Of a stretch of DNA of 64,000 bases, positions 30,774-64,000 are shown piece after piece. This DNA is from an uncultured Pelagibacteraceae bacterium (GTDB taxonomy: Bacteria > Pseudomonadota > Alphaproteobacteria > Pelagibacterales > AG-422-B15). The first letter of the stretch is position 1. Each line of letters starts with the position of its first letter. Position numbers and translations under genes: made by a program. The notes beneath the pieces were generated by a model. That model was given only the letters and a program-made list of their open reading frames with translations, was not told where the DNA came from and made no database searches. The DNA is taken from positions 19 to 64,018 of the forward strand of contig CACCKE010000005.1 of assembly GCA_902546615.1 (NCBI GenBank), read 5' to 3'.

Positions 30774-31331
30774 ATGATTTGGAATGAAGTTATTTGTTTA
30801 GGTGACTCGCTAACCTACGGTGCGAGAGATGAATATGAAAGGTCTTATACGTCTGAGCTGCCGCCAATTTTAGAAAAAATAACAAATGAAATTTGGATTT
30901 GCCATAACTATGGCATAAATGGGGAAACTTCGTCAAATCTTTTAAGACGTTCTTGGAGAAATGTTTCTTCTCACCCTCAAGCTAAAATAGTTTGCTTAAT
31001 GATTGGAACTAATGATACTAAACTTCCAACACCTAGTGAAATATATAGAGATAATCTCAGACAAATAATAAATATATGTAAAATACAAAAAAAATTTGTA
31101 ATTCTTGGAACTTTACCAACACTAAAATTAAATCCAAACTATAGACACAATCTAGAGTATATTGATATATATAACACTATTGTTAGGGAATTAGTAAAAG
31201 AAAATAAAATTGAAATTTGTGAATTTGATAACTTAGAGTCATATTTAGTTGATGGTGTTCATTTTGGGAATGAAGGGTATAAAAAAATTGCTGAAATATG
31301 GTCAAAATCAATTTTGAAACTTCAAGAATAG
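30774..31331 (+). CDS. SGNH/GDSL-family hydrolase (possible glycan O-acetyl esterase/transferase)
   Basis: Block I ICLGDSLTYG, block III MIGTNDT and block V DGVHF. Confidence 0.75.
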   Translation: MIWNEVICLGDSLTYGARDEYERSYTSELPPILEKITNEIWICHNYGINGETSSNLLRRSWRNVSSHPQAKIVCLMIGTNDTKLPTPSEIYRDNLRQIINICKIQKKFVILGTLPTLKLNPNYRHNLEYIDIYNTIVRELVKENKIEICEFDNLESYLVDGVHFGNEGYKKIAEIWSKSILKLQE

Positions 31332-60178: not shown

Positions 60179-60814
60179 TTGACTACACTATTTTTTGGAA
60201 CAACCGGTGGATGTTTAGATGCTTTCTATTTATTTAAAGAATTATATCCAGATGATGCTGATATGGCATTCTTATCTGATAGCCACCGTGTAAACGATAT
60301 AGTTTGTGGAGTCAAAATAGTAGGTGGGTTTAATGATATAAAAAACTCGCAATTTAAAAATTCTAATTTTGTTTTTCAGTGTGGCTCGGTAACTAACCAT
60401 ATCAATAGAAATTTTTGGTTTGAGTTGGCCATCAGAAATGGCATGAAACCTGTAAAGCTTGTATCAAAATTTGCTTATGTTCATGAAACTGCTGTTGTAG
60501 GCTTTGGTTCAATAATTTATCCAGGGGTAAAAATAATGGCTAACGTTAAAATTGGATCAAACTGTATTATTTTACCAAATACTGTAATAAATCATGATAG
60601 CTTGATAGAAGACTACTCAATTATAAATAGCTCATGTGTAATCAATGGAAACGTTAATATCGGAAATAAATCCTACATAGGTTCAATGTCCTCAATTAAA
60701 GAAAAAATTAATATTACTCCAAAAACTACAATTGGTATGTCTTCCTCAGTATTATCAGATATAAAAGAACCAGGTATTTATTTTGGCTCTCCAGCAAAAA
60801 AGAATAAAAGTTAA
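60179..60814 (+). CDS. sugar N-/O-acyltransferase, hexapeptide-repeat (PglD/NeuD family)
   Basis: N-terminal Rossmann-like half, then hexapeptide repeats (VGFGSIIYPGVKIMANVKIGSNCIILPNTVINHDSLI...). TTG start. Confidence 0.75.
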   Translation: MTTLFFGTTGGCLDAFYLFKELYPDDADMAFLSDSHRVNDIVCGVKIVGGFNDIKNSQFKNSNFVFQCGSVTNHINRNFWFELAIRNGMKPVKLVSKFAYVHETAVVGFGSIIYPGVKIMANVKIGSNCIILPNTVINHDSLIEDYSIINSSCVINGNVNIGNKSYIGSMSSIKEKINITPKTTIGMSSSVLSDIKEPGIYFGSPAKKNKS

Positions 60815-60818
60815 ATTT

Positions 60819-62009
60819 TTATTTTAAATTAGGATTTATATCATCAATCTTTTGCCATTTCTCAATAGGTACTGGATGATGGTTTTCAAAACCCTCTTTT
60901 ACTATTCGTTTTAGCTCAAATGCTTGCTCAATACAGTCATCTATATCAACTAAATATCTGTAACTACCTGCCCTCCCTAATGAAAAAACTCCGTCTGGCA
61001 TCAGTTTATGATATTCTCTAGCAATCAACATTTGTTCTTTCATCGGTACTGGATAATGGCGACCATTTTTTGAAGGAACTTCCATGCCTATCAAAGAATT
61101 TTTGTCTACATGCTGTGTGAATTTTTTATATTCAACGAGCCTCGTGTGTTTTTCTTTATTCGCATAATACAAGAAATAGACGTGATCTGGAAATACAAAT
61201 TCAGACGGAAAAACCATAAGATGAATATCTCTTCCAATATATGGAAGTTCGCCAAGACAATTATTAAATAAAATATCTGGTGATATAGTACTTATGATTA
61301 AATCGTAAGTATATTTTTCATCATCAATATAAACAGATTTATTTGGTATATCAAAACTCTGGATATTTGTTTTTAATTTAACTGAACATTTATCTACTAT
61401 ACTGTCAAAAAATTTATTGTAACCGTCCTTTGCTATAGGATAAGCAGACATGAGTGTATCATGAAATGCTGCTCTGGGGCCTTCTTGAATTTTTACACCT
61501 TTAGGAGACCATTTAAAAGTATCAATTTGATTTGCGTTACTAACTTGCCACATTTTTTCAGTATAGTTTTTTATTATTTTTTTATATAATGTAGGTCCTA
61601 TAGATCTTATCCAATATTCTTCAAAATCTTTGGCGTGCTCTACACCAGATGCATTTTCTAACTCTGATAATATTTTATCTGAGTCTGGCATAGAACGAAC
61701 ATCATCCATATGAATAGGAAAATTATAAAAGTTATTATCTTGCTCTACATAACTTAAAAATTGGTGATCCCCACAATCTCGGAGTGGCACTATTGAGTTA
61801 AGATAGTTATATATTTCGATGTTTTTTGTAATAAAATGTCGTGGACCAAAAGTATAAGGATGGCCACCATAGTAATGAGTCCTTACTCCTGCCCCAAGTT
61901 GATTTGCATTATCGACAAGAGTTATGTTCCAACCCCCTATCTCATTTAATTTATGAACAGATGCACAGCCTGCGGGACCTCCTCCTATAATTAAAGCTTT
62001 TTTACTCAT
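60819..62009 (-). CDS. glf: UDP-galactopyranose mutase (FAD-dependent)
   Basis: MSKKALIIGGGPAGCAS dinucleotide motif, YTEKMWQ and GRAGSYRYLVDIDD. The start is set at ATG 62009, not the ORF-track 62042, because of the upstream small ORF. Confidence 0.8.
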   Translation of the reverse strand: MSKKALIIGGGPAGCASVHKLNEIGGWNITLVDNANQLGAGVRTHYYGGHPYTFGPRHFITKNIEIYNYLNSIVPLRDCGDHQFLSYVEQDNNFYNFPIHMDDVRSMPDSDKILSELENASGVEHAKDFEEYWIRSIGPTLYKKIIKNYTEKMWQVSNANQIDTFKWSPKGVKIQEGPRAAFHDTLMSAYPIAKDGYNKFFDSIVDKCSVKLKTNIQSFDIPNKSVYIDDEKYTYDLIISTISPDILFNNCLGELPYIGRDIHLMVFPSEFVFPDHVYFLYYANKEKHTRLVEYKKFTQHVDKNSLIGMEVPSKNGRHYPVPMKEQMLIAREYHKLMPDGVFSLGRAGSYRYLVDIDDCIEQAFELKRIVKEGFENHHPVPIEKWQKIDDINPNLK

Positions 62010-62013
62010 TATC

Positions 62014-62166
62014 CTAGAAGATAGTATAGATAAATGGTGCAATTATAGAACTTTCACCAAGTATTATTAAAAAACCAAAAATAACTGAAAAAATAATTAT
62101 AGGAATTAACCAAAACTTTTTTCGCTCAATTGCAAAGCTCCATAAATCTGATATTAATTCTTTCAT
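62014..62166 (-). CDS. small (50-aa) single-TM protein, SxtK/DUF5989-like; not in the supplied ORF track
   Basis: Hand translation: MKELISDLWSFAIERKKFWLIPIIIFSVIFGFLIILGESSIIAPFIYTIF*. ATG at 62166, TAG at 62016..62014. It sits 3 nt after the upstream stop and 4 nt before the glf start. Confidence 0.6.
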   Translation of the reverse strand: MKELISDLWSFAIERKKFWLIPIIIFSVIFGFLIILGESSIIAPFIYTIF

Positions 62167-62169
62167 CCC

Positions 62170-62406
62170 TTAAAATGGTCTTTCATAATCTTTAATTGTT
62201 TTTACTATACTTTGTTTAACATCGCTTTGTTTATAGTATGTTTGAACATTTTTATCAAAACCTAAGAAATTACTTTTTTTTAGTATTTTTCTTAATATAC
62301 CAATGGGGATAAATATAAATATAAATAAAATTAACATAAGAATAGTTGTATTAACAACATTTAGAAAAGAAGATATTTTTTTTAAGTTTATATATATTAA
62401 ATTCAT
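62170..62406 (-). CDS. small (78-aa) membrane protein, possibly SxtJ-like
   Basis: One TM (ILMLILFIFIFIPIGIL) followed by a basic, conserved-looking tail LRKILKKSNFLGFDKNVQTYYKQ. It starts 2 nt after the carbamoyltransferase stop. Confidence 0.5.
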   Translation of the reverse strand: MNLIYINLKKISSFLNVVNTTILMLILFIFIFIPIGILRKILKKSNFLGFDKNVQTYYKQSDVKQSIVKTIKDYERPF

Positions 62407-62408
62407 GA

Positions 62409-64000
62409 TTAATCAGGGTTAATATTACTATAATCTTTTTTGAACGATTCAATTTTACTACTGTTCTGCCATAGTTTATCAAGAAAAATATTTTCTAATA
62501 CTAAAATATTCATACCTGTTTTCATAAAACACTCATAAGCTTCTTTAGGATTGCATACGATGGGTTCTCCTCTTACATTAAAAGAAGTATTTACAAGAAT
62601 TGGACAGTCTGTAATTTCTTCAAAATGAGACAGTAAACTATGGAGCTTATAGTTTTGATCCTTTGTAACAGTTTGAATTCTGGCACTATAATCAACATGT
62701 GTAACGGCGGGTATTTTTGATATTTTTATACTTAGTTTTTTAAACCCCGAGATATTCTTATTATTTATAATGTTTACTTTCTTTTCATCAGTTACTTCAG
62801 AAACAATTAACATGTAAGGACTTTCTATATTTAATTTAAACCAATCTGTAAGTTTCTCATATTTAATAACTGGAGCAAAAGGTCTAAATGACTCTCGATT
62901 TTTTATTTTAATATTCATTAAATGTTGCATATCTTTATTAAGAGGACTTCCAATTATAGATCTATTTCCAAGTGCGCGGGGGCCGAACTCCATCCTTCCT
63001 TGAAACCATCCAACAACACTGTCATTTTTTATCTCTAATGCTACTCTTTTAAAAATCTCTTTTTCAGTAAGTTCTCTATAATTTGCACCAACTAAGTCTA
63101 GGTAATTCTTTATTTCTTCATTGCTATATTTATTTCCCAAGTAAGAATATTTCATTTTGTCTTTATTGCTTATTTCTCTCTTTTTGCCCAAATACTCATA
63201 CCATGCAAGAAGACTAGCACCCAATGACCCCCCTGCATCTCCGGCGGCAGGCTGTATCCAGATATTTTTAAATTTTCCTTTGTTAACAATCTTGCCGTTT
63301 AAAACACAATTAAGAGCTACACCTCCCGCTAAACATAAATTATTTATTTCAAATTCTTCATATAATTTGTCTAAAATTTTCAAAACAATTTCCTCCAAAA
63401 CAACTTGAATAGATTTAGCAAGATCCATTTCCTTTTGTGTAATCTCTGTTTCAGGTTTTCTTGGTTTACCGCCGAAAAGATTATCAAATTTTTTACTTGT
63501 CATTTTCAATCCTGTGGCAAAATCAAAATAACTCATATCAAGCCTAAAAGAGCCATCATCTTTAATATCAATCAGATTATTTTTGATATCATTTACATAA
63601 GTAGCATTGCCATAAGGGGCCAAACCCATTAACTTGTATTCACCTGAATTGACTTTAAAACCTGCATAATACGTAAATGCTGAATATAATAATCCTAAAC
63701 TATGTGGGAATTCTAAAGATCGAATTTTCTTAATCGTATTTTTTTTACCAACCCAAATACTGCTTGTATCCCACTCTCCAACACCATCTAATGTTAATAT
63801 TAATGCTTCCTCAAAAGGACTTGGGAAAAACGCAGATGCAGCGTGAGATTTATGATGATCACTAAATAGCAGATTTGGTAACTTATTATTATCTTTTTTA
63901 TGAGCAATTTTTTTGAGTTCCTTAATAATATTTTGTTTAGTAAATAATTTATTTTTTATCCAAATCGGTAAGGCTCTTGCAAATGAAGAAAAGCCTCTAG
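62409..64000 (-). CDS. carbamoyltransferase, NodU/CmcH family; 5' end beyond the window
   Basis: My hand translation found no in-frame stop from 63630 to 64000 (...DHHKSHAASAFFPSPFEEALILTLDGVGEWDTSSIWVG...PHSLGLLYSAFTYYAGFKVNSGEYKLMGLAPYG...). Further motifs: LAGGVALNCV, QPAAGDAGGSLGA and NTSFNVRGEPIV. Confidence 0.85.
   Translation of the reverse strand, partial: RGFSSFARALPIWIKNKLFTKQNIIKELKKIAHKKDNNKLPNLLFSDHHKSHAASAFFPSPFEEALILTLDGVGEWDTSSIWVGKKNTIKKIRSLEFPHSLGLLYSAFTYYAGFKVNSGEYKLMGLAPYGNATYVNDIKNNLIDIKDDGSFRLDMSYFDFATGLKMTSKKFDNLFGGKPRKPETEITQKEMDLAKSIQVVLEEIVLKILDKLYEEFEINNLCLAGGVALNCVLNGKIVNKGKFKNIWIQPAAGDAGGSLGASLLAWYEYLGKKREISNKDKMKYSYLGNKYSNEEIKNYLDLVGANYRELTEKEIFKRVALEIKNDSVVGWFQGRMEFGPRALGNRSIIGSPLNKDMQHLMNIKIKNRESFRPFAPVIKYEKLTDWFKLNIESPYMLIVSEVTDEKKVNIINNKNISGFKKLSIKISKIPAVTHVDYSARIQTVTKDQNYKLHSLLSHFEEITDCPILVNTSFNVRGEPIVCNPKEAYECFMKTGMNILVLENIFLDKLWQNSSKIESFKKDYSNINPD

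Follow-up and report, generated by a model that had tools for sequence, protein, structure and literature searches.

The distal end of a 64,000-nucleotide (nt) stretch of contig CACCKE010000005.1 (positions 19 to 64,018 of the forward strand; hereafter the window), from an uncultured Pelagibacteraceae bacterium, carries four minus-strand open reading frames (ORFs) that are tightly packed across 60819-64000. In order, these encode an O-carbamoyltransferase (CT), a 78-amino-acid (aa) protein that resembles part of SxtJ, a 50-aa peptide of the DUF5989/SxtK family and a mutase of the GLF family (Table 1). The genes are separated by gaps of 2, 3 and 4 nt. These ORFs and spacings are as given in a preliminary description of the window, with the 78-aa gene starting 2 nt past the CT stop and the 50-aa gene a further 3 nt on. 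The operon ends at 60819, and convergent plus-strand genes, which encode a hexapeptide acyltransferase and a methyltransferase, stop at 60814, 5 nt from the mutase stop. The source contig extends 340 nt past the window edge, and the genome to which it belongs is 58% complete. A scan of the operon for promoters and terminators gave a signal no different from that of shuffled sequence. The locus forms a four-gene operon on the margin of a surface-glycan island of a streamlined, SAR11-like marine bacterium, and it is very probably a member of a widespread carbamoyltransferase module of the SxtI/J/K type. The CT-SxtJ-SxtK set itself is already known: it dates from the description of the saxitoxin cluster, its Pfam families exist and it is common across bacteria.

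Table 1 Features of the carbamoyltransferase operon. HMM, hidden Markov model.
Feature	Coordinates	Strand	Evidence
O-carbamoyltransferase (CT), SxtI/NodU/TobZ family	62409..64000, coding on to window-equivalent 64268	-	Carbam_trans_N and Carbam_trans_C, PDB matches
78-aa short SxtJ-like protein: juxtamembrane helix, one transmembrane helix, basic tail	62170..62406	-	custom SxtJ HMM
50-aa DUF5989/SxtK microprotein: N-terminal amphipathic segment with RKK, one transmembrane helix, C-terminal tail	62014..62166	-	PF19451
C-terminal hexapeptide F45-I-Y47-T-I-F50 of the 50-aa peptide	62017..62034	-	FXYXXF motif match
GLF-family FAD enzyme, UDP-galactopyranose-mutase-like, 396 aa, final operon gene	60819..62009	-	PF03275

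The CT gene is open to the window edge and the Met at 63629 is internal, as had been proposed from hand translation. In the contig, the frame extends to a 619-aa ORF whose ATG is 268 nt outside the window, some 70 nt short of the contig end. The protein matches both Carbam_trans_N (261 bits) and Carbam_trans_C (233 bits), and it is collinear end to end with PDB 7xb6 (280 bits over residues 14-597), NovN, GdmN and TobZ. It also contains GPRALGNRS, an instance of the motif GPRALGxRS that has been cited as the putative catalytic site of SxtI. TobZ, NovN, GdmN and NodU have the same two-domain architecture as the CT described here, composed of a Kae1-like N-domain and a YrdC-like C-domain. Those enzymes, however, work alone on soluble substrates, whereas the CT clade found here nearly always occurs with linked genes for SxtJ and SxtK. 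Unlike them, this clade is also unusually conserved across phyla, with 48-59% identity among the homologues at 80 loci.

The 50-aa gene is unannotated. Its frame at 62166-62014 encodes exactly the sequence that was quoted previously, with its stop 4 nt before the ATG at 62009. The proposed membership of the DUF5989/SxtK family was borne out by PF19451, which matches the peptide with 73.7 bits (cut-off 27; E = 1e-20) over model positions 2-49 of 49. This full-length match indicates that the ORF is more than a chance frame, and a six-frame search (72 bits) showed it to be the sole PF19451 match in the genome. Two residues are invariant in the DUF5989 family (64 sequences), P22 at the start of the transmembrane (TM) helix and Y47, and both are present here. 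The most conserved block of the peptide is its C-terminus, APFIYT[LI]F (64-66 peptides), which includes the pattern FXYXXF; the Tyr is found in 66/66 family members and the flanking Phe residues in 63/66 and 65/66. A second conserved segment of the SxtK family, KEFWxFLxxRKKYW, lies at the N-terminus and is predicted to face the cytoplasm. Across the family, a mean of 3.7 Lys plus Arg (K+R) residues precede the helix and none follow it, a charge bias that predicts an N-in, C-out topology. SxtK identity across phyla is 36-60%. No mention of DUF5989 was found in the literature searched.

The 78-aa protein had been described as SxtJ-like, and only part of this assignment stands. No match to the SxtJ family model PF19588 (gathering cut-off 24.4 bits) was found by hmmscan at E ≤ 1 or in a genome search at E ≤ 10, and a search of Pfam and NCBIfam returned only noise (TMEM156, MrdB and others, E > 0.01). 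As a word-based homologue search also yielded a single sequence (96% identical), we built HMMs from the genes that neighbour CT homologues. In relatives, the SxtJ genes that adjoin DUF5989 and CT genes encode 127-137 aa and score 16.6-53.8 bits, with 5 of the 6 tested above the PF19588 cut-off. With an HMM of 11 such relatives, the 78-aa ORF scored highest (20.8 bits, E = 1e-4) of the 6,111 six-frame ORFs in its own genome, ahead of the next at 12.5 bits. A broad HMM, made from the SxtJ genes beside 68 CT homologues of many phyla with the window left out, again placed it at the top of these ORFs (44 bits, E = 7e-12), over columns 58-122 only. A MAFFT alignment puts the protein on the C-terminal half of SxtJ, and in a six-frame search of 46 congeners, its best non-self matches were the C-terminal halves of SxtJ genes. 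This half is better conserved than the N-terminal one (2.08 versus 1.60 bits per column), in a family with 15-33% identity across phyla. Homology to the C-terminal half of SxtJ is therefore the part of the assignment that holds, and the match to PF19588 is the part that does not.

The usual SxtJ protein has about 130 aa and three hydrophobic segments, and it is the TM1-TM2 hairpin that is missing from the 78-aa protein. With the family alignment as input, AlphaFold2 modelled the latter as a continuous helix over residues 2-47 (predicted local distance difference test of 94-98 for the first 40 residues), after which come a linker of low confidence and a short helix at 63-73. This continuous helix led us to reject a re-entrant hairpin as the structure of the long hydrophobic SxtJ stretch. 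The basic tail of SxtJ proteins contains a mean of 7.8 K+R. Judged by homology, the 78-aa protein is an SxtJ truncated at its N-terminus, related to the curated family yet failing two of its defining features.

The truncation could mean that the 78-aa ORF is a decaying, functionless remnant of sxtJ and that the CT and the 50-aa peptide alone form the working unit. The lack of TM1-TM2 and of a PF19588 match would fit this idea, as would two relatives (L009 and L011) that carry SxtK and the CT with no recognisable SxtJ alongside. Conservation points the other way. The same operon is present in a public contig, L030, with 96-99% protein identity and with both small frames intact, and the ratio of nonsynonymous to synonymous substitution rates (dN/dS; NG86 method) between the two is lowest for the CT (0.11), followed by the 78-aa gene (0.18) and the 50-aa gene (0.25). 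These ratios rest on few substitutions, as the small genes differ by 7 (78-aa) and 3 (50-aa) codons, and the small number for the 78-aa gene leaves some room for decay. For the 50-aa gene, comparisons with more distant relatives, in which dS is saturated, gave 0.20-0.28. The 78-aa ORF has also kept the better-conserved half of SxtJ and is separated from the flanking genes by only 2 and 3 nt. Of the roughly 70 loci with an SxtJ gene, one other has a short SxtJ that is not cut by a contig end, a 74-aa form in a Francisellaceae metagenome-assembled genome (L065:3343-3716, JAHFQG010000109.1). This protein starts at the same alignment column as the 78-aa protein and is encoded in the same CT>J>K order. 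In light of this independent parallel, the short SxtJ is probably a functional minimal form rather than a product of decay, and we consider a functionless remnant improbable.

The last gene of the operon is, by its sequence, a GLF-family mutase, and its substrate is only predicted. It shares with UDP-galactopyranose mutase (Glf) the PF03275 domain (119.7 bits), the N-terminal GxGxxG site for binding of flavin adenine dinucleotide (FAD), the GRxxxYRY block and overall collinearity, and it matches solved structures of that enzyme over its full length but distantly. Its score against the equivalog TIGR00031 (97 bits) is below the cut-off of 303.75, which sets it apart from Glf as a distinct subfamily. 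This subfamily is large (1,575 proteins at E ≤ 1e-20) and well conserved, and members from Bradyrhizobium, Azospirillum and Verrucomicrobia show 57-70% identity. They are annotated at source as UDP-galactopyranose mutase, but the protein described here scores far below the equivalog cut-off and its true substrate may be a different one. The start codon had been suspected of over-extension, and the homologues support the ATG at 62009 instead. All those fetched (383-401 aa) begin MxKK..IIGGGPAGC and none has the 11-residue extension that a start at TTG 62042 would add, so this upstream start was rejected. The two closest homologues, both of 396 aa, are 99% and 87% identical to the mutase. In L030, gene calling splits the GLF-like gene into two pieces of 163 and 132 aa (L030:10615-11585), and several other genes of this contig are fragmented too; the likeliest source of these breaks is indel error in a long-read assembly, not pseudogene formation.

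L030 also shows what lies upstream of the CT (L030:6655-8135): a tRNA-Met(CAT) followed by about 1.4 kb at 24% G+C, an unusually long piece of non-coding DNA for a streamlined genome. The operon strand of this spacer has no ORF of at least 40 aa; the tRNA was the only Rfam match, and no protein similarity was found. A frameshifted gene, such as one for an SGNH protein, was rejected, as neither 135 neighbour proteins nor the ORFs of the genome itself gave a tblastn match, and we treat the gap as non-coding. The end of contig C11 of the genome studied here matches the tRNA side of the spacer, which places an assembly break within it.

To assess how widespread the arrangement is, we surveyed 80 loci with CT homologues (48-59% identity) from Proteobacteria, cyanobacteria, Omnitrophota, Planctomycetota, Patescibacteria, Nitrospirota and Firmicutes. 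DUF5989 was present in 66 of the 80 and SxtJ in about 70, in keeping with the earlier statement that the three genes occur together in many unrelated bacteria. CT>J>K was the commonest gene order (42 loci), followed by J>K>CT (18); the others were variants or ran into a contig end. Relatives mostly have J>K>CT, and the operon described here uses the sxtI-J-K order. In all 12 of the DUF5989 loci fetched from relatives, the CT gene was adjacent.

The most frequent neighbour family was SGNH, with 14 Lipase_GDSL_2 and 3 ALGX matches in 132 neighbour ORFs across phyla and a further 5 SGNH matches in 80 neighbour ORFs from relatives. After SGNH, the commonest neighbours across phyla were sugar-nucleotide enzymes and glycosyltransferases. 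In three complete genomes of relatives from the same order, highly divergent proteins of 386-490 aa with a TM anchor flank the triad (L122:4902-6059, L129:9469-10887 and, for the 490-aa protein, which is placed between SxtK and SxtJ, L128:7612-9081). Their SGNH/AlgX-like matches are below the Pfam cut-offs. A profile built from these three proteins found 16 more in the 80 CT loci, and the anchored SGNH-like proteins look like a fast-evolving partner family that is missed by standard annotation. The genome studied here encodes a single SGNH/GDSL protein (30774-31331 on the plus strand; 185 aa, GDS motif at residue 10), which is found 31 kb from the operon. It has no signal peptide or TM segment, which marks it as a soluble protein inside the glycan island and not as an anchored partner of the SxtL or DltD kind.

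The founding example of the module is SxtI-SxtJ-SxtK (with SxtL) of the cyanobacterial saxitoxin clusters, which has the same families in the same CT>J>K order. SxtI also contains GPRALGxRS, and the small partner has about 50 aa in both cases (sxtK is 165 nt). The two differ in that SxtJ is halved here (78 aa versus about 134 aa), in that the adjacent gene here encodes the GLF-like mutase and none encodes an SxtL-like GDSL/SGNH protein, and in that one set is found in a toxin cluster and the other in a surface-glycan island. In the saxitoxin cluster, SxtJ and SxtK were listed as of unknown function and proposed to act with SxtI (PMC2679770), and a preprint of June 2026 still calls this joint action hypothetical.

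The glycan-island setting, the co-transcription with a sugar mutase and the neighbours found elsewhere together make it fairly likely that a surface glycan is the target, O-carbamoylated by the module at the inner membrane. The O-carbamoylated sugar predicted in the preliminary description is thus plausible from context. A different target, a small molecule or other non-glycan, as proposed for SxtI and saxitoxin, would make the position in the island incidental. The founding example does lie in a secondary-metabolite cluster (PMC2679770), and the operon sits at the island edge, next to the tRNA-Met and the 1.4-kb spacer. Such a target is nevertheless highly improbable, given the GLF-family mutase in the same transcription unit, the sugar-nucleotide enzymes and glycosyltransferases that rank just behind SGNH among neighbours in other phyla, and the lack of metabolite biosynthetic core genes in the flanks examined.

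How the two microproteins would contribute is suggested by the C-terminus of the 50-aa peptide. FXYXXF is an acyl-shuttle motif; its tyrosine is the carrier of D-alanine in DltX and of the acetyl group in PatA (PMC12148441). The last six residues of the peptide, FIYTIF, fit this motif and compare with FIYANF in PatA of N. gonorrhoeae. DltX peptides fetched via PF12459 have 48-50 aa, are single-pass and end in FIYNEF or FIYNGF, so that length, single-pass architecture, predicted N-in/C-out topology and terminal FXYXXF are all features in common with the 50-aa peptide. In the DltX and PatA systems, the donor is an MBOAT protein, whereas here it would be the ATP-dependent carbamoyltransferase, and no carbamoyl-tyrosine intermediate is known so far. 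The peptide has no PF12459 match by hmmscan.

On the basis of this analogy, the mechanism that we tentatively favour is a DltX-like relay through a carbamoyl-tyrosine. Like TobZ, the cytoplasmic CT would use ATP to activate carbamoyl phosphate, forming carbamoyl-AMP, and it would act at the inner membrane along with both microproteins. The conserved C-terminal helix and tail of SxtJ would couple the CT to the 50-aa peptide, the N-terminus of which would be cytoplasmic and the invariant Tyr47 of FIYTIF outside. Tyr47 would accept the carbamoyl group as a tyrosyl carbamate and pass it to an extracytoplasmic transferase or acceptor. The end product would be an O-carbamoylated cell-surface sugar, and the modified position may be on, or close to, a furanose that the co-transcribed mutase produces. 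The constant chemistry would be supplied by the conserved CT and SxtK, and the acceptor would be set by a variable partner, such as the anchored SGNH protein at many other loci. We favour the relay because it would explain an invariant, outward-facing tyrosine and the recurrent anchored SGNH neighbours, and because it would explain why the CT (48-59% identity) and the peptide (36-60%) are conserved far above SxtJ (15-33%).

Several points weigh against such a relay. Characterised enzymes of the family, namely TobZ, NovN, GdmN and NodU, carbamoylate their substrates directly and without partners. The single-helix SxtJ and the lack of an MBOAT-like conduit leave the passage of the carbamoyl group across the membrane unexplained. 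Neither the 58%-complete genome nor the 20 kb that surround the operon in L030 yielded an anchored SGNH protein; in L030, a Pfam search of the three divergent genes upstream gave no SGNH match. The genome had no MBOAT or ALGX match either. A profile-profile comparison (hhalign) of DUF5989 with DltX was collinear but not significant, reaching a probability of only 7% (P = 0.005), with a DltX profile of just 2 sequences; this profile is thin because two phylum-wide scans, centred on Firmicutes-like genomes, yielded only 3 DltX loci. Finally, a terminal F.Y..F is present in 4 of the 6,111 ORF ends of the genome, so a single match is weak, and the weight of the motif lies in its invariance across the family.

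The main rival to the relay is a purely tethering role, in which the microproteins keep the CT, itself soluble, on the cytoplasmic side of the inner membrane. The CT would then carbamoylate an undecaprenyl-linked or other lipid-linked sugar directly, before it is flipped, and no group would pass through the peptide. This arrangement would agree with the direct transfer to substrate hydroxyls that is usual in the CT family, and with the conservation of the segments predicted to face the cytoplasm, namely the N-terminal KEFWxFLxxRKKYW of SxtK and the basic tail of SxtJ (7.8 K+R on average). A short, single-helix SxtJ suits an anchor better than a conduit, and the search of the incomplete genome for an anchored SGNH or MBOAT partner came back empty, as a tether would allow. 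A tether alone, however, leaves unexplained why the most conserved block of SxtK is the uncharged, extracytoplasmic FXYXXF with its invariant Tyr, why the commonest neighbours are anchored SGNH proteins and why the CT retains 48-59% identity across phyla despite presumably different glycans. We regard a tether alone as rather unlikely. The best explanation overall, to which we lean only slightly, is that the four-gene operon is an SxtI/J/K-type module that works at the membrane on a surface glycan, with the carbamoyl-tyrosine relay as its favoured mechanism. A bolder and more doubtful version of the relay is that the 50-aa peptide is an MBOAT-free carbamoyl-tyrosine shuttle and that the operon, with its CT, one-helix SxtJ core and peptide, is the minimal natural form of such a system.

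Collectively, our analysis recovers an unannotated 50-aa gene, corrects one start codon and places the module in a surface-glycan island of an abundant marine lineage, where it is co-transcribed with a putative furanose-forming mutase. What is distinctive about this locus is its rare, probably functional half-length SxtJ, which separates the dispensable from the core parts of this protein and makes the operon a convenient minimal experimental system. With 619, 78 and 50 aa, it offers the smallest three-protein set for reconstitution, which could test whether the invariant tyrosine carries a carbamoyl group. If the peptide does act as an MBOAT-free shuttle, only the C-terminal helix and tail of SxtJ would be needed to couple a cytoplasmic CT to an extracytoplasmic tyrosine, the principle of acyl-tyrosine relays would extend from acetyl and D-alanyl to carbamoyl groups, and a function would be assigned to both sxtJ and sxtK.

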